From a virus, in the IMG/VR virus record IMGVR_UViG_3300021961_000025: a DNA stretch of 64,000 nt; one strand, given 5' to 3'. This document shows positions 4,686 to 54,802 of the stretch, piece by piece (position 1 is the stretch's first letter; each line of letters starts with the position of its first letter). Below the pieces are notes generated by a model. The model saw only the letters and a list, made by a program, of their open reading frames with translations. It was not told the DNA's origin and did not search any database. The translations under genes were made by a program, and so were the position numbers.

Positions 4686-4965
4686 ACTAATAGCTGTGAA
4701 GAATTGGGTAGTTTCGGACTTCAGAGCCTACCCACTAAGATTTACATTAGAAGTTCTAGCATGGGCATGTTCTATAGGTGTATCAATTGGAATGGCAGTA
4801 ACAGTTCCAAACCCTCCTCTAATTATATTTTATCCTATCTGGATCGTAAGCTGTGCTACGTATGCATGGTGTGCCTATACACGTAAATCTTTTGGACTCC
4901 TAGCAAACTATATCTTTCTAACAGGGATTGATATGGTAGGGTTAACAAGGTTAATTTTAGCATAA
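4678..4965 (+). CDS. Hypothetical multi-pass membrane protein
   Basis: About three hydrophobic segments; likely start ATG 4678 overlapping the upstream gene end. Confidence 0.6.
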   Translation: MNRLIAVKNWVVSDFRAYPLRFTLEVLAWACSIGVSIGMAVTVPNPPLIIFYPIWIVSCATYAWCAYTRKSFGLLANYIFLTGIDMVGLTRLILA

Positions 4966-4973
4966 AATAAGTG

Positions 4974-5002
4974 TTGACTTTTGCAAAAAAGTGTAGTATA
5001 AT
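4974..5002 (+). promoter_or_regulatory. Early sigma70-type promoter
   Basis: TTGACT-17-TATAAT. Confidence 0.88.
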
Positions 5003-5008
5003 AGTAGT

Positions 5009-5551
5009 ATGAAAATTGAAAATGAGGTTTATATGATGGACTTGACTACTTATATCGCAGAACAAAATGCAAAGACTCAAGCATGGATCGATGAAGATCC
5101 TGCTAATCGTTGGGCAAGTATGATCATTACAGATATACAATTCTGGAATGATCAAGGTATCTACACTGTTGAAGATATGAAACGTCACGATTTAGAAACA
5201 TACATTTGGGATGCTTACAAAGATGCTAATGGCATTCGTCCTCGTTTTATGAATTTCTCTGCTATGTCTACAGAAGAGTTGCAAGCTGAAGCAGACTATC
5301 TTTCAAATCAAATCAAAAAACAAATCGAAGAAGAAAAGAAAGAACAATCTCTTGCAAAAGAGCAGTTCGAAGAACACATTAACTGTATGATTACTAATCA
5401 TAACGTAGATGAGAAAACTGCTATTCGTTGGGATATGCAAGCTGAGAACACTGATCCAGTTAACGAACAAGACGTTGAACACTATTACTGGAACAAAGGA
5501 TTGTCCATGGAAGAGATTCGATCTTACATGGCTAAATATAAATACATATGA
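5009..5551 (+). CDS. Hypothetical early phage protein
   Basis: 180-aa ORF with YIWDAYKDANGIRPRF motif; the true start may be 5033 (SD GAGG). Confidence 0.7.
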   Translation: MKIENEVYMMDLTTYIAEQNAKTQAWIDEDPANRWASMIITDIQFWNDQGIYTVEDMKRHDLETYIWDAYKDANGIRPRFMNFSAMSTEELQAEADYLSNQIKKQIEEEKKEQSLAKEQFEEHINCMITNHNVDEKTAIRWDMQAENTDPVNEQDVEHYYWNKGLSMEEIRSYMAKYKYI

Positions 5552-5781
5552 AAATAAAATATACGTTTTTTATACTATTAATCGGCATTGGACTTTACAT
5601 AGTTTGCGATTGGTATAAATACAAAAAAGCAAGACTGTTCTACTACGACAAAACCGATTGTTTAGTATCAGCTAAATATAAAGACGTACCACTTGAGCAA
5701 GGATGGGGAGTTTACATTTGCAAACGTGGTGATGAAGTAAAAACAGAAATTTTAATGGATCCAGCTAAATTAGAGAGGTAA
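5548..5781 (+). CDS. Hypothetical protein with N-terminal membrane anchor
   Basis: ATGA overlap with upstream stop; FFILLIGIGLYIVC. Confidence 0.6.
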   Translation: MKIKYTFFILLIGIGLYIVCDWYKYKKARLFYYDKTDCLVSAKYKDVPLEQGWGVYICKRGDEVKTEILMDPAKLER

Positions 5782-5787
5782 TAATCT

Positions 5788-6222
5788 ATGGAAGAAGAAA
5801 TGAAGACTATGGTTGAAACGACTACAATTGTAGAGAATGACGAAGTTGAAACAACCGAACCTGTAAGAAACTTGTATCGTTATACATTTATTCTAAAAGG
5901 TAAAAAGACTTGGACTACTGACGCAGAGTCAGAAGAAGAGGCAAAACAAAGATTCGAAGAAGATACTTTTATCAATGGTAATCCGATTATCGATATTATT
6001 GAAAACGAACTTCCTGTTCCAGAACCAGTTGATCTTGGTTACAGAGAAATGAAATCTACTAAGGTAATCTTAGAAAAAGGTGAAGAATATCTAACCGATC
6101 AGAAAGCACAATTTGCTAAAATGTTTGCTGAAGCATCTAAACAAAAGGTTGATGGTGCGACAGAGAACGTTGCTGTAGAGATCGAAACTGCTGTAAAGAA
6201 AACAACAAAAAAGAAAAAATAG
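5788..6222 (+). CDS. Hypothetical acidic protein with lysine-rich tail
   Basis: SD GAGG, tight gene packing. Confidence 0.65.
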   Translation: MEEEMKTMVETTTIVENDEVETTEPVRNLYRYTFILKGKKTWTTDAESEEEAKQRFEEDTFINGNPIIDIIENELPVPEPVDLGYREMKSTKVILEKGEEYLTDQKAQFAKMFAEASKQKVDGATENVAVEIETAVKKTTKKKK

Positions 6223-6225
6223 TTG

Positions 6226-6254
6226 TTGACTTTTGAGTGAACCTGTAGTATAAT
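6226..6254 (+). promoter_or_regulatory. Early sigma70-type promoter
   Basis: TTGACT-17-TATAAT. Confidence 0.88.
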
Positions 6255-6267
6255 AGGTTTTTAGATT

Positions 6268-6492
6268 ATGGAGAATATTATGTTTAAACTAGCTTACTGT
6301 GACTATATTGCTGCTACGATTAGTAAGGCTCTACTTGGTGAAGCAAAACAAGTAACATCGCTTATTAAGAGTGCATCACATCCTCAAATGGATTTACATC
6401 CAGATGAAGGGTACTTCCTTTCTACCAAAAAGACCATTGAAGTCGAAGACGTCCATGGTAAACAATATCGTGTTACGGTAGAGGAACTATAA
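6268..6492 (+). CDS. Hypothetical protein
   Basis: ORF directly after the promoter; SD GGAG before the internal Met at 6280. Confidence 0.65.
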   Translation: MENIMFKLAYCDYIAATISKALLGEAKQVTSLIKSASHPQMDLHPDEGYFLSTKKTIEVEDVHGKQYRVTVEEL

Positions 6493-37872: not shown

Positions 37873-38103
37873 ATGGCACTAAGTAAAGTTAAATCAAAGG
37901 GGATCCAAGACAACATTGAGTTGCAAGGTAATAACACTACGCTTGCAGTTGGACCTCAGACTGATCGTCCATTGGTTCCTAAAAAAGGGGATATTCGTTT
38001 TAACGAAACGTTAAATCGACAAGAGATTTACGATGGATTAAAATGGGATCCAATCAATGCTCAATCGCTATCTATTGCATTAAATGTGGCATTAGGTGGT
38101 TAA
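37873..38103 (+). CDS. Small fibre connector-like protein
   Basis: GDIRFNE...EIYDG.KW; ends IALNVALGG; late promoter at 37849, SD GAGG. Confidence 0.68.
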   Translation: MALSKVKSKGIQDNIELQGNNTTLAVGPQTDRPLVPKKGDIRFNETLNRQEIYDGLKWDPINAQSLSIALNVALGG

Positions 38104-44359: not shown

Positions 44360-44962
44360 GTGCCTTATCTTGGAAGAGAACCAACATACGGAAGTTTCGA
44401 GAAACAGGTGTTCGCTACTAATAATAGCGACACCTCGTTCCTCCTAGACTATCCTGTTGGTAGTGCATCAAGTGTACTGATTACAAAAGATGGTTTAGTT
44501 TTAACACCTGAAGTTGATTATACAATTTCTGGTGGTGGATCGACAATCAATATTTCTGGTGCTGCTCTTGCATCTTCTGTTAAATTAGTTGCTGTCTTTT
44601 TATCAAAACAGCAATCAGTAAACACAGTAGCTGACAGTTCGATCACTGCTTCAAAATTATCGACTGGTCCAAGAAAGTCTGTTGTTAATTCGTACGAGAT
44701 TATTTCTGCTAGCCAAACTCTAATTGCTGGTAATCACTATTTCGCTGATGGCTTAGGTGCAACTATTAATCTAGTTTTACCTGTTGCGTCATTAGGCGAC
44801 ACTGTGCGTATTGCAAAAGTAGGTGCTACTGGAACAGTTAATATTGTTCCAAATACAGGACAAAAGATTGAGGGTGCGACTGTAGTAAGTCAAACTCTAA
44901 CAAGTTACGAAACTAATACCTATGTGTATACAAATACAACATATGGATGGGTTAGAAATTAA
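44360..44962 (+). CDS. Structural protein (MPYLG type)
   Basis: MPYLGREP, DSSITASKL, C-terminal VYTNTTYGW. Confidence 0.7.
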   Translation: MPYLGREPTYGSFEKQVFATNNSDTSFLLDYPVGSASSVLITKDGLVLTPEVDYTISGGGSTINISGAALASSVKLVAVFLSKQQSVNTVADSSITASKLSTGPRKSVVNSYEIISASQTLIAGNHYFADGLGATINLVLPVASLGDTVRIAKVGATGTVNIVPNTGQKIEGATVVSQTLTSYETNTYVYTNTTYGWVRN

Positions 44963-44990: not shown

Positions 44991-45329
44991 ATGGCAATAA
45001 TAGTAGATTTCTTTATCGATCAAGGATCTGATTATGAGAACATCATAACTATTAATGATAGTTCTGGATCACCACGTAATCTGACTGGATATACTGTGGC
45101 GAGTCAAATAAGAAAAGGACATGGATCAACTACAAGTTATCCATTTACTGCTGCTTTGTTTGGAAATGATCCAGCGACTGGAAGAATTATATTAACTCTG
45201 ACTAATACTCAGACTTCGGCAATTCCTGCTGGTAGGTATGTTTATGATATTGAATTAACATCTCCTGCAGGTAAAAAGTCTAGAGTCATAGAAGGAATAG
45301 TAACTTTAAGTCCAGAAACAACGAGGTAA
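44991..45329 (+). CDS. BppU-like small adaptor protein
   Basis: IDQGSDY, NLTGYTVASQIRK, GRYVYDIEL, RVIEGIVTLSPETTR. Confidence 0.7.
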   Translation: MAIIVDFFIDQGSDYENIITINDSSGSPRNLTGYTVASQIRKGHGSTTSYPFTAALFGNDPATGRIILTLTNTQTSAIPAGRYVYDIELTSPAGKKSRVIEGIVTLSPETTR

Positions 45330-45332
45330 TAA

Positions 45333-45620
45333 ATGTCAACAGTAACAACCAACTTAAATACGCAAGAAGGAAGTACGCTAGAGACACAGGTTACTGCTGC
45401 TGATACTACGAGTTCAGGTAGTAGTACAAGTTCCTCGACGTCATCTGGTCAAATAACATCAGGGCAGACTTCTGGTCTCCCACTCTCTGAAAACTCGGAA
45501 GTAGACGTAGTAGCAGAGGGATTAGTGAATGGTTCAGTATTGGTGTACCGATCCACAACGTCAAAATGGACGTCTACCATAAACCTCAATGCTCAAAACA
45601 TGGACGCTGGGGAATTCTAA
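45333..45620 (+). CDS. Small Ser/Thr-rich structural protein
   Basis: NGSVLVY..TTSKW, ends MDAGEF; SD GAGG. Confidence 0.65.
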   Translation: MSTVTTNLNTQEGSTLETQVTAADTTSSGSSTSSSTSSGQITSGQTSGLPLSENSEVDVVAEGLVNGSVLVYRSTTSKWTSTINLNAQNMDAGEF

Positions 45621-45639
45621 AAATTAGGAGATATAACAA

Positions 45640-47484
45640 ATGGCATCGTTAATTAGAATTAAAAGATCTTCCGTAGCAGGTAATCCAACTACCCTTGCTG
45701 CTGGAGAACTTGCATATTCAGCGTTACCTGACAATGGCTCAAATGGTGGCGAAAGACTGTATATTGGTATTGGTACTGAGACAAATGGTAATGCTGCGAA
45801 TCACTACGTGGTTGGTGGTAAATATTTCACAGACAGTATTGATGCAGCAACATCTGCAAATACTGCTAACACAATTATTAAACGTGATGCGAATGGCGAC
45901 TTTGCTGCTGGCACAATCACTGCAACAAGATTTTCTGGTGCAATCGATGGCGCAGGCATTGACGTTAACTCGGTTACATTAGGCACACAAACAACTGGTA
46001 ATTACCTAGCAACTTTAGCAGATGCTGGTAACTCAAACTTAGTCGTTGTTGGCTCAGGATCTGAAACTGCTGCTGTAACATTAGATCTTTCTGATACTGG
46101 TGTAACTGGTGGACAGTACGGATCTGCAACAGCAATTCCTCAGATTACAGTTGACGCAAAAGGACGTGTCACTGCTGCTGGAACAATAAACGTAGCGACT
46201 TCATTATCTGTTAATGCCGAGTCAGGCACAGGTGATGGTGTTGATCTATTAACTGATTCACTTACAATCAATGGTGACGCAAGTCATCTTTCTACTTCGA
46301 TTACAGGCGACACAGTAACTATCTCCTCAGATGCCACTGAATTAAATACTGCTAGCACAATCGTTGCGAGAGATGCAAGTGGAAACTTTTCTGCTGGAAC
46401 AATTACTGCTAACTTAACTGGTAACGTGACTGGTGATGTAACTGGTGACATTACTGGTGATGTAACATCTTCAAACGTAATTATCTCTGGTGGATCAATC
46501 GACACAACAATGATTGGTGCTGTTGATCCTGCATATGGTGCATTCACTACTTTACAAGCTACTACTCCATCTTTCACTGGTAATCTAGACATGAACAGCA
46601 ACAACATCGTGAATGTTGCTGAACCAACACAATCACACCATGCTGCGACTAAATCATATGTTGATGCTGTTAAGACTGGTTTAGATGTTAAAGATTCAGT
46701 TAAAGTTGCGACTACTGAAAACATTGCTCTTGATGGAACTCAAGCAAGCGTCGATGGTGTTGCATTGACTGATGGCGATCGTGTTCTTGTTAAGAATCAA
46801 ACTGATCAAACAGAAAATGGTATCTACGTAGTTTCAACTTCTGGAAACTGGTCTCGTTCAACTGATGCTGACAACAATCCTGGAAACGAAGTTTCTGGTG
46901 GTATGTTTACTTTCGTTGAATCAGGAACTGTAAATGCTGACTCAGGTTGGGTATTATCTAACGTAACTGGTAATGCTGTTCTTGGTACTGACAGTTTACA
47001 ATTCTCTCAGTTCTCTGGTGCTGGTCAAATTATTGCTGGTATTGCTTTAAGCAAAACTGGTAATACTATTGACGTTAACGTTTCTACTAATGGTGGTCTT
47101 AATGTAAATGGTTCAGATCAATTAGAATTAGATTCAAATGTATCTGGTGCTGGTTTAACATTAACAAATGGTGTTCTTGACGTAGTTGGTACTGCAAATA
47201 GAATTACTGTTAATGCAAATGATATTGATATTGCTTCAACTTACGTTGGTCAAACATCAATTACAACTTTAGGTACTATCGATACTGGTACATGGGAAGG
47301 AACAACTATTGCTGCTGGTTATGGTGGTACTGGTTTATCTTCTTACACAGTAGGTGACTTAGTATACGCAAGTGGCGCAACTACTCTAGCTAAATTAGCA
47401 ATGGGTAATGCTGGCACTGTGTTACAAGTTAATAGTGCTGGTAGTGCATTGACTTACGGAGATCTTGATGGTGGTACTTATTAA
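45640..47484 (+). CDS. Tail fibre protein
   Basis: IRIKRS..GELAY N-terminus, ITVDAKGRVTAA, AATKSYVD, DRVLVKNQT..ENGIY, ends DGGTY. Confidence 0.8.
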   Translation: MASLIRIKRSSVAGNPTTLAAGELAYSALPDNGSNGGERLYIGIGTETNGNAANHYVVGGKYFTDSIDAATSANTANTIIKRDANGDFAAGTITATRFSGAIDGAGIDVNSVTLGTQTTGNYLATLADAGNSNLVVVGSGSETAAVTLDLSDTGVTGGQYGSATAIPQITVDAKGRVTAAGTINVATSLSVNAESGTGDGVDLLTDSLTINGDASHLSTSITGDTVTISSDATELNTASTIVARDASGNFSAGTITANLTGNVTGDVTGDITGDVTSSNVIISGGSIDTTMIGAVDPAYGAFTTLQATTPSFTGNLDMNSNNIVNVAEPTQSHHAATKSYVDAVKTGLDVKDSVKVATTENIALDGTQASVDGVALTDGDRVLVKNQTDQTENGIYVVSTSGNWSRSTDADNNPGNEVSGGMFTFVESGTVNADSGWVLSNVTGNAVLGTDSLQFSQFSGAGQIIAGIALSKTGNTIDVNVSTNGGLNVNGSDQLELDSNVSGAGLTLTNGVLDVVGTANRITVNANDIDIASTYVGQTSITTLGTIDTGTWEGTTIAAGYGGTGLSSYTVGDLVYASGATTLAKLAMGNAGTVLQVNSAGSALTYGDLDGGTY

Positions 47485-47509
47485 TAAATAGTAAGTAAGG
47501 AAACCATCA

Positions 47510-47839
47510 ATGGCAAACGTAATTAAAATCAAAGGCTCTGGAGTTGCTAGTTCAACTCCATCCTCTCTTGAATATAGAGAGTTAGCATTAAACTATGCTG
47601 ACAAAAAACTTTATTTCAAGGACAGCACTGGTGCTATCGATTTCTTCGATGCATCTGCTGGTGGCGTAACTGATAACGTACTTAACGATACAGTTATACA
47701 CGGAGTCTTTCCAACTGGAGACTATGGCGACTTTGGTGTTGGGACACTTGATGCGTTTGGAATAAGAACAAACTTTAAAACCTATGAATGCATGGGTGGA
47801 ATTGGGTATCTACGTCAGATAGATCTTGGTTCATTATAG
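47510..47839 (+). CDS. Small fibre-associated protein
   Basis: IKIK...PSSL...ELALNYADKKLYFKD N-terminal module; ends IDLGSL. Confidence 0.7.
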   Translation: MANVIKIKGSGVASSTPSSLEYRELALNYADKKLYFKDSTGAIDFFDASAGGVTDNVLNDTVIHGVFPTGDYGDFGVGTLDAFGIRTNFKTYECMGGIGYLRQIDLGSL

Positions 47840-47853
47840 TTAGGGAAATTTAG

Positions 47854-49371
47854 ATGCCAACACAAATACAACTTAGACGTGGAACTGCGACACAAAACAA
47901 TGGCTTTACAGGTGCTGTTGGTGAAGTCACAGTAAACACTACGAATTATGCTCTACGTGTGCATGACGGATCCACACAAGGTGGCGTCGAACTTGCACTT
48001 AACGATTTAACAAACGTAAACACTTCTGCTGCTCTTAGCTTAGCAAGTATTACAACTACTGGTAATGTTGATGTTGGTGGCAATTTAACCGTAACTGGTA
48101 CTACAACTTTTAATGGTGGAACACTAACACTCGGTGATGCTGATACAGACAATGTTGTCTTCGGTGCCGACGTTCAATCAAGTATTATTCCTGATGCTGA
48201 CGATTCTTATGCATTAGGTACTTCTGCAAAGAAATGGTCTGATTTACATGTCGTTGATATTACTGCGACAGGAAATCAAACTATTGGTGGCACATTAGGT
48301 GTCAGCAATTTAGCAACACTTCATTCTTTATCTGTAACTAACAATGCCACTGTAAGTGGTAATGTTGAAGCAACTGGAAACTACCTATCTGCTGCAGGTA
48401 ATCTAACTTTAACTTCTGGTAATGCATCAATCGGTGGCACTTTAGGTGTTACTGGCGTATCTACGCTTGATAGTTTATCCGTAACAAATAACGCAACAGT
48501 TGGTGGAAGTTTAACCATCACTGGCGATTTACAAGTTGACGGAACAACAACTACTATTAACTCTACTACTTTAGACGTTGATGATATTAACATCACAGTT
48601 GCTAAAGGTGCTGCAAATGCTGCTGCTGCAAATGGTGCAGGTTTAACAGTAGATGGTGCTGACGCAACATTCACTTATACTTCTGCAGACGATCGTTGGA
48701 ATATTAATAAAGGTATGAACATCACAGGTGCTTTGGTACCTACAACTGATGTTACATACGACTTAGGTACTTCTTCACTACGTTGGAAAGATCTATACCT
48801 ATCAGGAAACACTATTGATTTAGGTGGAACAAAACTTTCACTAGATGCAAACTCTAACATCTCAGTTACAGATGGTAGTGGTAATCTTAAAAAATTAAAC
48901 GTAGAAGAATTAGAATTCGGTACAGGTGCGAACAAAAGACGTTTACGTATTCGTTCAGGCAAACTTCGTTTCGACGATGGTGACGACACTGACGAATCTG
49001 CGATTAAAGCAGACTTAATTAAAAACACTGCTGACGACTTAGCTGAAGGAACTACAAATCTTTACTACTCTGATGCAAAAGTTCAAACAAAATTAGCAAG
49101 TATTTCTGGTAACATCGTTCCAGATACAAATAATACTTATGATCTAGGTAGCGATACCAATCAATTTAGACACTTATACCTTTCTGGTTCCTCAATGTTT
49201 ATGGGTACTACAAGGGTTTCAATGCACGCTAATGGCTACTTAGTATTCAATGCTGATCATGCGAATAATTATCCATCATCAGCAGATTCTTCAGTAGCTA
49301 CATCAACTAACGGAATTGGGGCTACTTCAGGATTCGCTGTAGCAATGGCTATTGGTCTTGGGGGTATGTAA
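47854..49371 (+). CDS. Tail fibre with Mtd N-terminal-like domain
   Basis: MPTQIQLRRGT...FTGAVGEVTV.T....RVHDG..GG; repeated YDLG...W..LYLSG modules. Confidence 0.8.
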   Translation: MPTQIQLRRGTATQNNGFTGAVGEVTVNTTNYALRVHDGSTQGGVELALNDLTNVNTSAALSLASITTTGNVDVGGNLTVTGTTTFNGGTLTLGDADTDNVVFGADVQSSIIPDADDSYALGTSAKKWSDLHVVDITATGNQTIGGTLGVSNLATLHSLSVTNNATVSGNVEATGNYLSAAGNLTLTSGNASIGGTLGVTGVSTLDSLSVTNNATVGGSLTITGDLQVDGTTTTINSTTLDVDDINITVAKGAANAAAANGAGLTVDGADATFTYTSADDRWNINKGMNITGALVPTTDVTYDLGTSSLRWKDLYLSGNTIDLGGTKLSLDANSNISVTDGSGNLKKLNVEELEFGTGANKRRLRIRSGKLRFDDGDDTDESAIKADLIKNTADDLAEGTTNLYYSDAKVQTKLASISGNIVPDTNNTYDLGSDTNQFRHLYLSGSSMFMGTTRVSMHANGYLVFNADHANNYPSSADSSVATSTNGIGATSGFAVAMAIGLGGM

Positions 49372-50351
49372 TGGCAGTTACAACTCGCCAAGGACTTAAA
49401 GATTATGCCTTACGTGCACTTGGTGCACCTGTTATAGAAATTAACGTTGCTGAAGAGCAATTAGAAGACAGAATCGATGAGGCTCTAGACTATTTCAACA
49501 TCAATCACTGGGATGGTTCTGAAAGAGCATTCCTTCAACATAAAGTTGTTGGTTCAACACTAACATTCTCCTCTGGGTCAGGTACATCGTTTATAGATGG
49601 CGAAACGATTACAGGTAATACGTCAGGAGTATTCGGAGTAGTTCAAAAAAATACAAGAACTGCTACTACTCTACAGTACGATTACTCTAGAAAAATTACA
49701 AACAATTTAAAAGAAAAAGCACCTTTCGTAGTTGGCGAAACTGTCGTTGGTGCTTCATCTGCTGCAACTGCGATTATTGGAAGTATTACTTTAGGTGATA
49801 TTGAGAATCGTTACATTCCAATTCCAGATAGCACTTATGGTGTTAATAAAGTATTTTCTTTATACTCTGGTTCTTCTACTATGAAGAACATTTTTGATTT
49901 ACAGTATCAATTAAGATTAAATGATCTTTATGATTTAACTGCCACTTCAGTTGTTTATTATACGACTGTAATGAATCATCTACAAATGTTAGATACTCTA
50001 TTAAATGGTGCAGTATTGTATCGTTTCAATCGTCTATCAAATCGTTTATACATTGATATGGATTGGGGATTTGAAGCACAAGTAGGAGATTACATTTTAG
50101 TTGATACATATAAAGCAATGGATCCAGCTACATTCAATAGAGTGTATAATGAACCATGGCTAAAGAAATATGTAACAGCATTATTCAAAATGCAATGGGG
50201 AGCAAACCTTAAAAAGTTTAGTGGTTTATCTCTTCCAGGTGGTGTATCTATCGATGGCGATGGTATATACAACGAAGCAATGAATGAGAAAAATGCTTTA
50301 GAAGATGAATTAACAGGTAAGGCAGCACCATTAGAATTTTTTGTGGGGTAA
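49371..50351 (+). CDS. gp13: Neck protein gp13
   Basis: LRALGAPVIEINV..EQLEDRIDEAL, WLKKYVTALFK.QWG.NL.KF.G..LPGGV. Confidence 0.95.
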   Translation: MAVTTRQGLKDYALRALGAPVIEINVAEEQLEDRIDEALDYFNINHWDGSERAFLQHKVVGSTLTFSSGSGTSFIDGETITGNTSGVFGVVQKNTRTATTLQYDYSRKITNNLKEKAPFVVGETVVGASSAATAIIGSITLGDIENRYIPIPDSTYGVNKVFSLYSGSSTMKNIFDLQYQLRLNDLYDLTATSVVYYTTVMNHLQMLDTLLNGAVLYRFNRLSNRLYIDMDWGFEAQVGDYILVDTYKAMDPATFNRVYNEPWLKKYVTALFKMQWGANLKKFSGLSLPGGVSIDGDGIYNEAMNEKNALEDELTGKAAPLEFFVG

Positions 50352-50354
50352 ACG

Positions 50355-51515
50355 ATGTCAGGACGTAATACTTACATCGGACAGGGAAACACCTCCGAAC
50401 AGAATTTATTGGAAGACTTAATCATTGAAAGTCTTTCAATTTATGGACAAACTTTATATTACCTACCAAGACAGTATGTAAATAAAGATATTATTCTTGG
50501 CGAGGATACGCTAAGCAAATTTATTAATGCTTATCCTATCGAAATGTATTTTGAGAACGTTTCTCAATTCGATGGACAAGGTCCATTTTTACAAAAGTTT
50601 GGATTGTTTATGGAACAATCCGCAAACCTCACTGTAAGTCGTCGTAGATGGCAACAGTTAGTTGGACAATACGGAAATACATTTGTTCCTAATCGTCCAA
50701 ACGAGGGAGATTTACTTTACTTTCCATTGACTAAAGGTTTGTTTGAAATTAAGTTTGTTCAACATCAAGATCCTTTTTATCAATTAGGAAAGTTATACGT
50801 TTATAAATTACAAGTTGAATTGTTCCAGTATGCTAGTGAGAAGATCGATACAGGTATTGCTGAGATTGATGCGTTTGAAACATTGAAAACGTTTACGACA
50901 GATCCTACTAGAACAAATGCTATGTTTGTTGATAGTATTACTGTTACCAATGTAGGTAAAGGTTATACTACTACACCAACATTAACATTTACTGGTGGTG
51001 ATTTTAAAACTGCAGCAACTGGTACTTTAACAATAGATACGTTGATTAATTCAGGTAAGATTAATGGAGTTAATTTGACAGCGACAGGTTCAGGATATAA
51101 ATCTGCACCAACGCTAACCATTTCGGCTCCGACAGGCACACAGGCTACAGCAACAGCGAATCTTGTTGGCGATACAATTGGAACTATTTCGATTGTTAAT
51201 GCTGGAAGATTCTATAAAACTGGTACGACAGTAACGATTGGTGGAACTGGTTCAGGTGCAACAGCAACTGCGACTATTTCTTCAACTGGTATTATTGAAG
51301 CGATTGTTGTAACAAATCCTGGAAGTGGATATACAAGTGCAACAGTTACTATCTCTGCTCCGAACGATTTGATACAAGCTACAGCGACTGCGGAGATTGA
51401 CCTAAATATAGATGCACAGGGTGGTTATGCTGACAATACTGCTCTTAAAGTTGAGCGTACTCACGATGGTAAACGTGTGGCATGGTCTGAAGATAATCCG
51501 TTTGGAGACTTTTAA
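50355..51515 (+). CDS. gp14: Neck protein gp14 with inserted Gly/Thr-rich repeats
   Basis: EQNLLEDLIIESL.IYG, PIEMYF, RPNEGDLLYFP, FEIKFVQH..PFYQLGK, ends NPFGDF. Confidence 0.93.
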   Translation: MSGRNTYIGQGNTSEQNLLEDLIIESLSIYGQTLYYLPRQYVNKDIILGEDTLSKFINAYPIEMYFENVSQFDGQGPFLQKFGLFMEQSANLTVSRRRWQQLVGQYGNTFVPNRPNEGDLLYFPLTKGLFEIKFVQHQDPFYQLGKLYVYKLQVELFQYASEKIDTGIAEIDAFETLKTFTTDPTRTNAMFVDSITVTNVGKGYTTTPTLTFTGGDFKTAATGTLTIDTLINSGKINGVNLTATGSGYKSAPTLTISAPTGTQATATANLVGDTIGTISIVNAGRFYKTGTTVTIGGTGSGATATATISSTGIIEAIVVTNPGSGYTSATVTISAPNDLIQATATAEIDLNIDAQGGYADNTALKVERTHDGKRVAWSEDNPFGDF

Positions 51516-52255
51516 TGTTAAACCATGCACCATTTTATCACGAAACTATAAGAAACGTTATTGTTGGTTTCGGCAAGATGTTTTCGGACATCAAGATACA
51601 AAGAATTAAAGATTCTACTGGACAAGTAGAGCAAGAGATTGCAGTACCAATTGCATATGCTCCAAAAGAAAAGTGGATTCAACGTGTAGAACAAGATCCT
51701 AATTTAGATGACGGAATCACCTACACTACTTTACCTCGTCTTTCTTTTGAAATGACTGGTATGAGTTACGATCCATTACGTCGTTTAAATAGATTAGCAT
51801 CTATTCAAAAAAGCACGACTACTGGTAGAGATAAAATTTGGGCACCAGTGCCATATAACATTGATATTGCGTTATATGCATTGACTAAGACTACGGAAGA
51901 TGGTTTACAAATTGTTGAGCAAATCGTTCCGTATTTTACACCAGAGTTTACAATGTCTGTTCAAGGAATGAGAAGTCCTTTAGATATTGTAACTGATGTG
52001 CCAGTGATTTTAAACAGTGTCTCATTTGTAGATGACTACGATGGAACATTTGAAATAAGAAGATTTGTTACTTGGACACTAAACTTTACTTTGAAAATTA
52101 ATCTATTTGCAGGTGCAGACGATAGTGGAAAAGTTATAACAAAAACATTAGTAGACTTAGGTAATCCAGACGAACAACATGAATCAAGAGGAAACCTAAA
52201 TAACTTTGAGATAACCGATAATGGATGGACTGCAACCTTTAAAGCAGATTCATAG
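51515..52255 (+). CDS. gp15: Tail sheath stabilizer/terminator gp15
   Basis: FYHETIR..IVGFG.MF, VPIAYAPKEK, LPRLSFEM, PVPYN, QIVEQIVPYF.P. Confidence 0.95.
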   Translation: MLNHAPFYHETIRNVIVGFGKMFSDIKIQRIKDSTGQVEQEIAVPIAYAPKEKWIQRVEQDPNLDDGITYTTLPRLSFEMTGMSYDPLRRLNRLASIQKSTTTGRDKIWAPVPYNIDIALYALTKTTEDGLQIVEQIVPYFTPEFTMSVQGMRSPLDIVTDVPVILNSVSFVDDYDGTFEIRRFVTWTLNFTLKINLFAGADDSGKVITKTLVDLGNPDEQHESRGNLNNFEITDNGWTATFKADS

Positions 52256-52265
52256 GAGATAATAA

Positions 52266-53201
52266 ATGGCAAAACAGGTACTTAATATTGGACTTACGCC
52301 CAACGATGGCACAGGGGATACTCTGCGTATTGGTGGCGATAAGATACAGGATAACTTTGATGATCTTTACCTTGCTTTAGGTGCAGGAACTTCAGCAACT
52401 GGTTCTGTTAAAATCGCTATTCCAGACACAGGTAATACTACTGGACAAGTTCTAAAATATGACGGAACAAATTATGTTCCATCATCAGACATTAACACAA
52501 ACACAACTTACGCTGTCAGTGCAGAAACTGATGCAGGTGGAGTAAACATTCGTCTTTCAGGTAGCGATGCTACTACGGATGATGTATTACTGGTTCCTGG
52601 AACTGGTTTAACTATTGTACGTACAACCGATAGCGAAATTACTTTTACAAACACAGTTTCAAATACAACTTACAACGTTTCAGTTGAATCAATTGTAGCT
52701 GGTACAAAGACTTTACGTCTAACAGGTTCTAATGCTACTATTGATGATATTACTGTTACACAAGGTACTGGTATTACATTAAGTTCAGCATCAACGTCAG
52801 AAATGACAATTACTGCTGCAATGCATAAAGTAAACGATCAAACTGGTGAAGTATGGACTTATCCTTACTATCAATTTGGTGGTGCTGGTCCAACTGACTA
52901 TACAGTTTATGGAGATGGTTTCCCAACAGCTGGTGTTGCCGATCCAGACATCTACGTATATCGTGGACATACTTACAGATTTAAAAATTTAATTCCATCT
53001 GAAGTCGTAGAGATTTTAGATTCATCCAATGCGCAACCTGCTGCTGATTATATTTCTTCAACTGGTGCAGTGCGTAACGAAGCAGACCAAGACGAATATA
53101 TTTTATTTAAAATACCACAAAACGCTACTCCAGGAAATGCATTTAAATATAGATCTAAATCAAATCCAGGATCAATGTTAGGTAACATTGTTGTAGTCTA
53201 A
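52266..53201 (+). CDS. Structural protein with gp9/gp10-like N-terminus and cupredoxin-like C-terminus
   Basis: MAKQVLNIG..PNDGTGDTLR.GG.KI..NF..LY; C-terminal YVYRGHTYRF...SMLGNIVVV. Confidence 0.7.
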   Translation: MAKQVLNIGLTPNDGTGDTLRIGGDKIQDNFDDLYLALGAGTSATGSVKIAIPDTGNTTGQVLKYDGTNYVPSSDINTNTTYAVSAETDAGGVNIRLSGSDATTDDVLLVPGTGLTIVRTTDSEITFTNTVSNTTYNVSVESIVAGTKTLRLTGSNATIDDITVTQGTGITLSSASTSEMTITAAMHKVNDQTGEVWTYPYYQFGGAGPTDYTVYGDGFPTAGVADPDIYVYRGHTYRFKNLIPSEVVEILDSSNAQPAADYISSTGAVRNEADQDEYILFKIPQNATPGNAFKYRSKSNPGSMLGNIVVV

Positions 53202-53215
53202 ACTAGGATGAATAA

Positions 53216-54802
53216 GTGGCTCAATTTTATAATGCAAACTATAACTTAAAAGCATCTGGTGTCCCTGTTCAATATACACCTGAGCAGGTTAAAGAATACA
53301 TTAAATGTAAAGGCAATCCAATTTACTTTATTGAGAACTACTGTCAAATTGTATCTCTTGATAAAGGTTTAGTTCCCTTTAAGTTATATGATTGTCAAAG
53401 AGAAAAAGTAAAATTAATTACTGAGAGTCGTAAAGTGATTCTCATGGAAGGTAGACAGCAGGGTAAAACGATTACCTCTGCTGCATGCATATTACATTAT
53501 ACAATTTTTAATGATAACGTGACTGTGGCTGTTCTTGCCAACAAAGCAACTGCAGCAAGAGAAGTTTTAAGTCGTTATCAATTAATGTATGAGCATCTAC
53601 CTCAATGGTTACAACAAGGTGTTACAACTTGGAATAAGGGTGACATTGAATTAGAAAATGGTAGTAAGGTATTTACTGCTGCTACTTCTAGTTCTGCTAT
53701 TCGTGGTAAGTCAGTTAACTGGCTATATGTGGATGAGGCTGCAATTATTCCGAATACGATTGCTGATGAGTTTTTTACTTCAGTATATCCTACAATTTCT
53801 GCTGGTGAAACTACCAAGATTTTGTTAAGTTCTACGCCTATGGGGTATAATCACTTCTGGAAGTTTTGGAGTGATGCGGAACAAGGATTAAACGGATTTA
53901 AGACACTATTCATTCCTTACAATAAGATTCCTGGAAGAGATGAAAAGTGGGCTGAGCAACAGAGATCTCTGTTAGGTGAATTAAAGTTTAACCAAGAAGT
54001 ATTATGTCAGTTTCTTGGTTCTAGTTTAACTTTAATCAATGGTAATGCTTTAGGGCAAATGGCTCCAAAAGCATTTATCAAACAAATGGATGGTCTAGAC
54101 ATTCTTGCTGAGCCAAAAGAACGTAACATATATTACATTGTTGCAGACGTCAGCAAAGGTTTAAATGGTGACTATTCTGCGTTTACGGTAATTGATACTA
54201 CGAAAGTACCTTTTGAAGTCGTAGCGAAGTACCGAAGTAATAAAGTAAGTCCAATGCTCTTTCCTAGCATTATTGCAAAGGTAGCAAAGGAATATAATAT
54301 GGCATTTGTGTTGATTGAGGTGAACATTAGCGACCAAGTAGCATATATCCTATATAATGAGATAGAATACGAAAATATGATTTTTGTTTCTAAAACTTCA
54401 AAAGGACAGAGAATCTCTAGTGGTTTTGGAAGCAGTAATTCGCAATTGGGAGTAATAACCGACAAAAGAGTTAAGAGGATAGGTTGTTCTCAGTTGAAAC
54501 AATTGATAGAAGAGAAGAAACTTCTAGTTCAAGATGTTGATATTATAAGTGAATTATCAACATTTATAGAAAAACGAGGATCGTTTGCAGCCGACGAGGG
54601 CTATCATGACGATCTTGCAATGACATTAGTATTGTTCGGATGGTTGACTTCGGATCCCTACTTTAAGGATTACAACGACGTTAATCTACGACAGGAGATG
54701 TATGAGAGCCAAATGAAGCAGATCGAAGACGAACTGACTCCCTTTGGGTTTTATGACGATGGAACGAGCGAGCATGATGACAAGAAATTGCTCAACTTCT
54801 AA
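53216..54802 (+). CDS. gp17: Terminase large subunit gp17
   Basis: RQQGKT Walker A, LYVDEAA Walker B, SSTPMG, DVSKG..DYSAF, HDDLAM. Confidence 0.97.
   Translation: MAQFYNANYNLKASGVPVQYTPEQVKEYIKCKGNPIYFIENYCQIVSLDKGLVPFKLYDCQREKVKLITESRKVILMEGRQQGKTITSAACILHYTIFNDNVTVAVLANKATAAREVLSRYQLMYEHLPQWLQQGVTTWNKGDIELENGSKVFTAATSSSAIRGKSVNWLYVDEAAIIPNTIADEFFTSVYPTISAGETTKILLSSTPMGYNHFWKFWSDAEQGLNGFKTLFIPYNKIPGRDEKWAEQQRSLLGELKFNQEVLCQFLGSSLTLINGNALGQMAPKAFIKQMDGLDILAEPKERNIYYIVADVSKGLNGDYSAFTVIDTTKVPFEVVAKYRSNKVSPMLFPSIIAKVAKEYNMAFVLIEVNISDQVAYILYNEIEYENMIFVSKTSKGQRISSGFGSSNSQLGVITDKRVKRIGCSQLKQLIEEKKLLVQDVDIISELSTFIEKRGSFAADEGYHDDLAMTLVLFGWLTSDPYFKDYNDVNLRQEMYESQMKQIEDELTPFGFYDDGTSEHDDKKLLNF

Follow-up and report, generated by a model that had tools for sequence, protein, structure and literature searches.

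The fibre genes at positions 44991 to 49371 of the viral DNA analysed here (IMG/VR virus record IMGVR_UViG_3300021961_000025; the window denotes the whole stretch of 64,000 nucleotides) probably encode several proteins that join one after another, in the order of their genes, into a single tail fibre; the joints would be split between two polypeptides and held non-covalently. The two halves of each joint can be recognised at the ends of consecutive genes: a short C-terminal motif, which we call the tail, closes one protein, and an N-terminal module, the head, opens the next. The elements of the cassette and their coordinates in the window are listed below (aa, amino acids; Ig, immunoglobulin; HMM, hidden Markov model).

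44991..45329, + strand: 112-aa Ig-like protein, similar to the T5 p132 / DT57C LtfC collar; putative anchor of the chain
45333..45620, + strand: 95-aa adaptor; N-terminal half rich in Ser and Thr, no head module, ends in ..NMDAGEF; PHROG 13853 at 1.2e-5
45603..45617, + strand: tail 1, D-A-G-E-F, the final five residues of the 95-aa adaptor
45640..47484, + strand: 614-aa fibre protein, from MASLIRIKRS (head 1) to ..LDGGTY (tail 2); matches several fibre or structural PHROGs
45640..45798, + strand: head 1, of the RIKRS..GELAYS type, residues 1-53 of the 614-aa protein; head HMM 1.3e-12
47467..47481, + strand: tail 2, D-G-G-T-Y, the final five residues of the 614-aa protein
47510..47839, + strand: 109-aa connector, from MANVIKIKGS to ..IDLGSL; head HMM 4.5e-23
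47510-47656, + strand: head 2, residues 1-49 of the 109-aa connector
47822-47836, + strand: tail 3, D-L-G-S-L, of the 109-aa connector
47854..49371, + strand: 505-aa distal fibre protein, starting MPTQIQLRRG; no tail motif
47854-47997, + strand: Mtd_N head of the 505-aa protein, residues 1-48
49333-49368, + strand: hydrophobic C-terminal motif ..AMAIGLGGM of the 505-aa protein

Only 3 of the 69 open reading frames (ORFs) called in the window have a C-terminus of the form D-x-G-x-[FYL], against 0.05 expected from composition, and an HMM of the head built from related loci matches solely the three ORFs that lie directly 3' of these tail-bearing ORFs (E 1e-12 to 5e-23); within the window, tails and heads are paired one-to-one. 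The original prediction, made from the letters and a list of ORFs, had given the same ORFs with the termini MDAGEF, MASLIRIKRS, LDGGTY, MANVIKIKGS, IDLGSL and MPTQIQLRRG, all of which are confirmed here. It had also described one and the same motif pair at three junctions: a tail does face a head at all three, but the tails and heads belong to three recognisably different classes.

The same adjacency is found in other phages, whether loci are picked by the head or by the tail. The pattern of the 109-aa head retrieved 80 loci from IMG/VR, with 367 junctions once redundancy was removed, and in most of these loci the gene upstream of the head ends in ..DGGTF. A tail was present upstream at 22 of the 34 head-positive junctions with the strict motif and at 26 of the 34 with a looser one, compared with 4 of the 333 head-negative junctions (Fisher 6e-23). 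These loci also contain a second junction that lay outside the selection, where a small protein ending in ..DGGNY is followed by a fibre protein starting MANTLRIKRR, and the small first-in-chain proteins of other phages end in DGGN[FY]. Scanning IMG/VR for DGGTF followed by a stop gave 80 loci in which 78 matches closed, in frame, an ORF of 60 aa or more; a head started within 200 nucleotides (nt) downstream in 41 of the 75 loci with enough downstream sequence, and after one small intervening ORF in 10 further loci. With DGGNY followed by a stop, a head lay within 200 nt downstream in 51 of 60 cases, and at tail-less junctions in the same loci the next gene began with a head in less than 3%. 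Some 14 fibre genes ending in DGGTF are followed by a small coiled-coil ORF (63-83 aa) with a conserved ..YNQKI..LTNQNILLEAKL.. stretch (loci L092, L101-L103, L118, L131, L133, L136, L148, L162, L164 and L166), with a head gene directly after it in several; the product of this ORF may be an assembly factor or a spacer.

Tails and heads correspond by class as well as by position. Across loci, DGGN[FY] tails precede RIKRR..NAELA heads, DGGT[FY] tails, which are the commonest, precede IKIKRS..GELA heads, and DLG[SGA][LIV](A) tails precede QLRRG/QFRGG heads, the true Mtd_N class. Among non-redundant junctions, DGGT[FY] was found before IKIKRS-type heads 40 times and before NAELA-type heads 0 times; position -2 of the tail was N five times and T 0 times before NAELA heads, compared with T 41 times and N twice before other heads (p 1.2e-5), and QLRRG heads were tied to DLG-type tails (p 1.3e-5). 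The pairing of DGGNY with NAELA heads was predicted ahead of the DGGNY scan and held. L078, an unrelated contig, has the classes in the same order along its genes as the window. The class boundary around junction 1 of the window (DAGEF before RIKRS..GELAYS) is fuzzy, its relatives being DSGEF (L005) and ESGQY (Limnohabitans phage DC31), both before the same type of head.

Six proteins contain an internal second head with a tail-like ..T-I-D-G-x-x immediately before it, the junction lacking both the aromatic end and the Met-Ala (for example, ..TIDGED then NTILLKRS, and ..YIDGNE then PNKIYLKRS). These fused forms suggest that tail and head adjoin within a single module, which can be continuous or split over two polypeptides, and they are the strongest indirect evidence for contact between the two. 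It could be argued instead that tail and head are independent hallmarks of one family of fibre genes, whose products each attach on their own, as several fibres or branches. The head would then be an N-terminal domain for trimerisation or virion anchoring and the tail the end of a C-terminal mini-domain, and the adjacency would come from tandem genes inherited as a block. We consider this unlikely, because the order along the loci is polar (a tail-only adaptor first, head-plus-tail proteins in the middle and head-only proteins last), because the upstream proteins that bear tails include a dozen or more unrelated ones (61 to 3412 aa), because the class of the tail predicts the class of the head, and because the fused proteins hold the two contiguously; the tip of the fibre, moreover, is the known location of Mtd (PMC2408619).

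Both motifs keep their terminal positions. In 332,000 residues of unique ORFs, DGG[TNSV][FY] occurs 85 times at the C-terminus and 0 times internally, and the head opens the ORF in 304 of 305 matches; the internal exception in these loci (L084, 5662-6927) has its head at residue 113, after a coiled-coil N-terminal region and with no tail-like motif before it. Among 1.84 billion cluster representatives, 29,471 head-bearing proteins were detected at E<=1e-3, and the head starts at residues 1-6 in all of the best 150 of these 29,471 representatives. The conservation could also reside in the nucleic acid; the junction would then serve to couple translation or, as a linker for recombination, to shuffle modules. 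A recombinant that breaks at the head boundary (see below) would fit with this, as would the arrangement of class-1 junctions (e.g., L007, 4915-4925), where the DGGNY gene and the gene after it share bases of their stop and start codons (TAATG) and where the Gly-Gly codons are often GGAGG, about 10 nt upstream and Shine-Dalgarno-like; in this class the tail codons may double as the ribosome-binding site of the next gene. As an explanation for the junctions at large, however, a nucleic-acid element is highly improbable. Each of the two Gly positions is encoded by all four Gly codons, which argues for selection at the level of the protein rather than of a DNA signal; both codons for Asp, Phe and Tyr are used, the tail motif is kept as amino acids across lineages of 36-60% GC, and the gaps between tail and head genes range from -1 to >150 nt and occur in all frames. 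Fusion of tail and head genes by read-through or frameshifting was also considered and was rejected, given that the gaps vary in both length and frame.

Recombination at the joint was observed in one pair of contigs. L024 and L025 run collinear (84-86% identity) as far as codon 44 in the head gene; past this codon comes a 4-kilobase (kb) segment with different distal genes, and homology is back at codon 57 of a 68-aa gene. This is a module exchange exactly at the head boundary. Within the 614-aa gene, window positions 45655-47336 are 73% identical at the DNA level to positions 4855-6458 of Limnohabitans phage DC31 (PQ492658), a 76-kb freshwater phage, a likeness that points to the fibre cassette having moved horizontally between phages that are otherwise unrelated.

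The head of the 505-aa protein connects the system to a known structure. Its residues 5-41 match Pfam Mtd_N (PF18454), the N-terminal beta-prism of Mtd, with 47.9 bits (cut-off 26.3; 1.3e-12), and its residues 1-90 match the Mtd crystal structures 1yu0-1yu4 at 2e-7 (phmmer). Profile-profile comparison (hhalign) aligns the IKIKRS/RIKRR class with the QLRRG/Mtd_N class over 42 columns from residue 1 (92.5%, E 4.7e-7), and an AlphaFold2 (AF2) monomer model of the 109-aa protein contains four short strands in residues 6-47, with a predicted local distance difference test score (pLDDT) of 76-89.

Many head-only proteins, often of 66-75 aa, end in a hydrophobic ..A-[ML]-[AS]-I-A-L-G(G) (loci L110, L112, L119, L122, L138, L143, L156 and L157; proteins P0025, P0058 and P0090). 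The window has two such ends, ..AMAIGLGGM in the 505-aa protein and ..LNVALGG in a 76-aa ORF at 37873-38103, and this ..A-I-A-L-G end looks like the usual terminus of the last protein of a chain. Other C-termini recur on head-bearing proteins, such as ..IRF[FY]MEVI, ..SAIITMDIG[AV] and ..TWVALGDL[QS]A (P0007, P0015, P0029, P0040, P0044, P0054; P0009, P0086, P0111; P0010, P0037, P0069), and may represent further classes of terminal motif. The small head proteins found after a tail (66-110 aa, including the 109-aa ORF) could also be read as assembly chaperones of the Tfa kind, or as caps, acting on the C-terminal tip of the upstream fibre. Tfa genes lie directly downstream of fibre genes, and the small head genes are likewise directly 3' of a fibre gene; in addition, many of the small proteins consist of a head and the short hydrophobic end, and residues 50-109 of the AF2 model of the 109-aa protein are of low confidence. 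We nevertheless regard a chaperone or cap as quite improbable: the same head is present on long fibrous proteins of up to ~1500 aa, the small head protein itself ends in a tail and is followed by another head both in the window and in L078, and the search for Pfam chaperone families gave no match. A chaperone of this type would, in any case, still need tail-head binding, and would be a variant of the end-to-end chain rather than an alternative to docking.

A chain assembled end to end could be built in the following way. The 112-aa protein would form an anchoring collar on the phage tail and hold the 95-aa adaptor, which would present its free C-terminal tail, h-D-[GA]-G-x-[FY]-COOH. The trimeric N-terminal module of the 614-aa fibre protein would close onto the tail of the adaptor, tail 2 at the other end of the 614-aa protein would take the head of the 109-aa connector, and tail 3 of the connector would take the Mtd_N head of the 505-aa distal protein. 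The head is envisaged as a module of ~45 residues from Met1 that includes two strands, basic I-x-I-K-R-S and G-E-L-A, and is probably homologous to the N-terminal beta-prism of Mtd. At each joint the next trimer would grip the free C-terminal h-D-G-G-x-aromatic with the basic strand at its N-terminus, and tail and head look like a single structural module that has been divided at a loop. The presence of at least three cognate classes in fixed order could make the assembly ordered and unambiguous. Because the joint would be non-covalent and the head is conserved, distal parts could be exchanged by recombination at the head boundary. The stacking of trimer on trimer, the electrostatic pairing of the tail Asp and carboxylate with Lys or Arg of the head, and the role of the 112-aa protein as a collar are all suppositions of the model. 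The original prediction that gene order mirrors a daisy-chained fibre, the tail of each protein docking in the head of the next, is partly supported: adjacency, terminal positions, class pairing, fused forms and one observed recombinant speak for it, whereas docking and its geometry are what we infer from them.

Several points weigh against this interpretation. The contact between tail and head is itself deduced from sequence. Metagenomic loci are phylogenetically redundant, and the p-values given above overstate the independence of the junctions. About a third of DGGTF tails have no head next to them, some being followed by small coiled-coil ORFs or by a gp13-like neck gene, and ~40% of heads have no canonical tail upstream, although roughly half of these have variant tails such as NGG.F or DAG.F. 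As regards the head, those of the 614-aa and 109-aa proteins have no Pfam Mtd_N match at E<=0.1, an HMM of the IKIKRS/RIKRR heads made without the QLRRG class does not retrieve Mtd from the PDB, and the monomer model of the head has weak, non-specific fold matches (Foldseek to 1yu1, E 3.9). Finally, cryo-electron microscopy of phage BPP-1 is cited as suggesting two Mtd trimers per fibre (PMC2408619), in which case the BPP-1 fibre would not be a simple 1:1 coaxial chain.

The protein at the start of the cassette had been described as a BppU-like adaptor heading the series. This may be right at the level of the fold, but p132/LtfC-like is the better name, as the 112-aa protein has an Ig-like fold that can be superposed on p132/LtfC (a fold of ~110-140 aa). 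Members of this family lie directly upstream of the chain in >20 loci, including contigs of unrelated freshwater phages. In T5, the side fibres are attached to a dodecameric ring of the Ig-like p132, and p140 and p132 have been described as a landmark of T5-like phages only (PMC10038345); the loci found here show a putative anchoring protein of the T5 p132/LtfC type outside T5-like phages.

The genes around the cassette identify the window as a T4-like myovirus. Baseplate genes and giant structural proteins are encoded upstream of the cassette, and the region at 49371-54802 contains gp13-, gp14- and gp15-like neck or sheath-stabiliser genes, a gp9/10-like gene and the large terminase; no close phage relative of the window at the DNA level was found by megablast. 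The gp9/gp10-like gene, for a connector between baseplate and fibre (52266-53201; Pfam T4_gp9_10_N, 3e-8), lies between the gp15-like gene and the terminase, apart from the baseplate cluster. One further fibre-like gene precedes the cassette:

44360..44962, + strand: 200-aa tail-fibre-like protein, just 5' of the cassette, with neither head nor tail motif

Residues 1-107 of this protein match PHROG 18673 ('tail fiber protein', 9.6e-8); it has no Pfam match, no PDB sequence match and no BLASTP similarity to Bbp9 of BPP-1, and its membership of the fibre chain is uncertain. Searches with the cassette proteins gave a Pfam End_tail_spike match for the 505-aa protein (1.2e-5) and, as the sole match of the 614-aa protein to PDB sequences, a mid-region motif of 'tail fiber gp9' (23sh); the 109-, 112- and 200-aa ORFs matched nothing relevant among PDB sequences.

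Beyond this phage, the chances seem to us evenly balanced that h-D-G-G-x-[FY]-COOH and the Mtd_N-like head constitute a widespread split module (~29,000 head clusters) with at least three orthogonal connectors that specify subunit order in podo-, sipho- and myoviruses, that it serves as a breakpoint for host-range exchange, and that it was born by fission of continuous fibre proteins. If so, the genome sequence would suffice to deduce the architecture of a fibre. In uncultured phages, the annotation of most fibre genes goes no further than 'hypothetical' or 'tail fiber', with the joining partners unstated; a code of terminal motifs, once confirmed, would make it possible to work out how fibres are built and in which order their subunits follow, for thousands of phages from marine and fresh water. 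It would also account for the exchange of distal receptor-binding parts between unrelated phages, and would provide a structural role for the N-terminal domain of Mtd and for the unexplained C-termini of many fibre proteins. As far as we could find, in a literature survey in which most subscription journals were not covered, the tail motif, its pairing with Mtd_N-like heads and the cognate classes have not been described.

Comparable arrangements can be found in cultured phages. Limnohabitans phage DC31 has the entire four-gene cassette, with proteins of 119 aa, 93 aa (ending in ESGQY), 590 aa (with a head and DGGTY) and 119 aa (with a head), and in Pelagibacter phage HTVC008M a 629-aa protein ending in ..VDLGSVA precedes a protein of 1068 aa with MPTALQLRRG at its start. 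Bbp9, the putative tail fibre protein of BPP-1, ends in ..ADLGGIA; the gene after it is that of Mtd, and Mtd trimers occupy the distal fibre ends (PMC2408619, PMC3240598); we found no description in the literature of the C-terminus of Bbp9 as a docking partner. BPP-1 resembles the window in that the 505-aa protein opens with a genuine Mtd_N domain and in that Bbp9 ends like ..IDLGSL, but the window has neither a C-type-lectin variable domain nor a diversity-generating retroelement, and it would chain three joints rather than one.

At the proximal end, the nearest parallels are T5 p132 with the side fibre LTFpb1 and DT57C LtfC with LtfA-LtfB, where N-terminal strands of LtfA thread into the sheets of LtfC (PMC10713586). 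The window differs from them in that the phage is a T4-like myovirus and related cassettes lie in unrelated contigs, and in that its first fibre piece is a separate 95-aa adaptor. Multi-protein fibres whose gene order mirrors the order of the subunits are known from DT57C and from the long tail fibre of T4, in which gp34, gp35, gp36 and gp37 are joined end to end and encoded in proximal-to-distal order. The likeness of the T4 long fibre to the window is functional; Pfam revealed no sequence relation, the families of gp34-gp37 being absent from all six ORFs examined. The T4 joints, unlike those proposed here, are not made of a short C-terminal motif and a conserved N-terminal beta-prism, and do not form a family that is reused across many types of phage. 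N-terminal anchor domains are also known from branched receptor-binding proteins, such as the anchor and branch proteins of the G7C, CBA120 and Klebsiella phage type, and a related case is BppU-BppL of TP901-1. What these systems have in common with the window is an adaptor onto which exchangeable distal receptor-binding parts can dock by means of a conserved N-terminal anchor domain.

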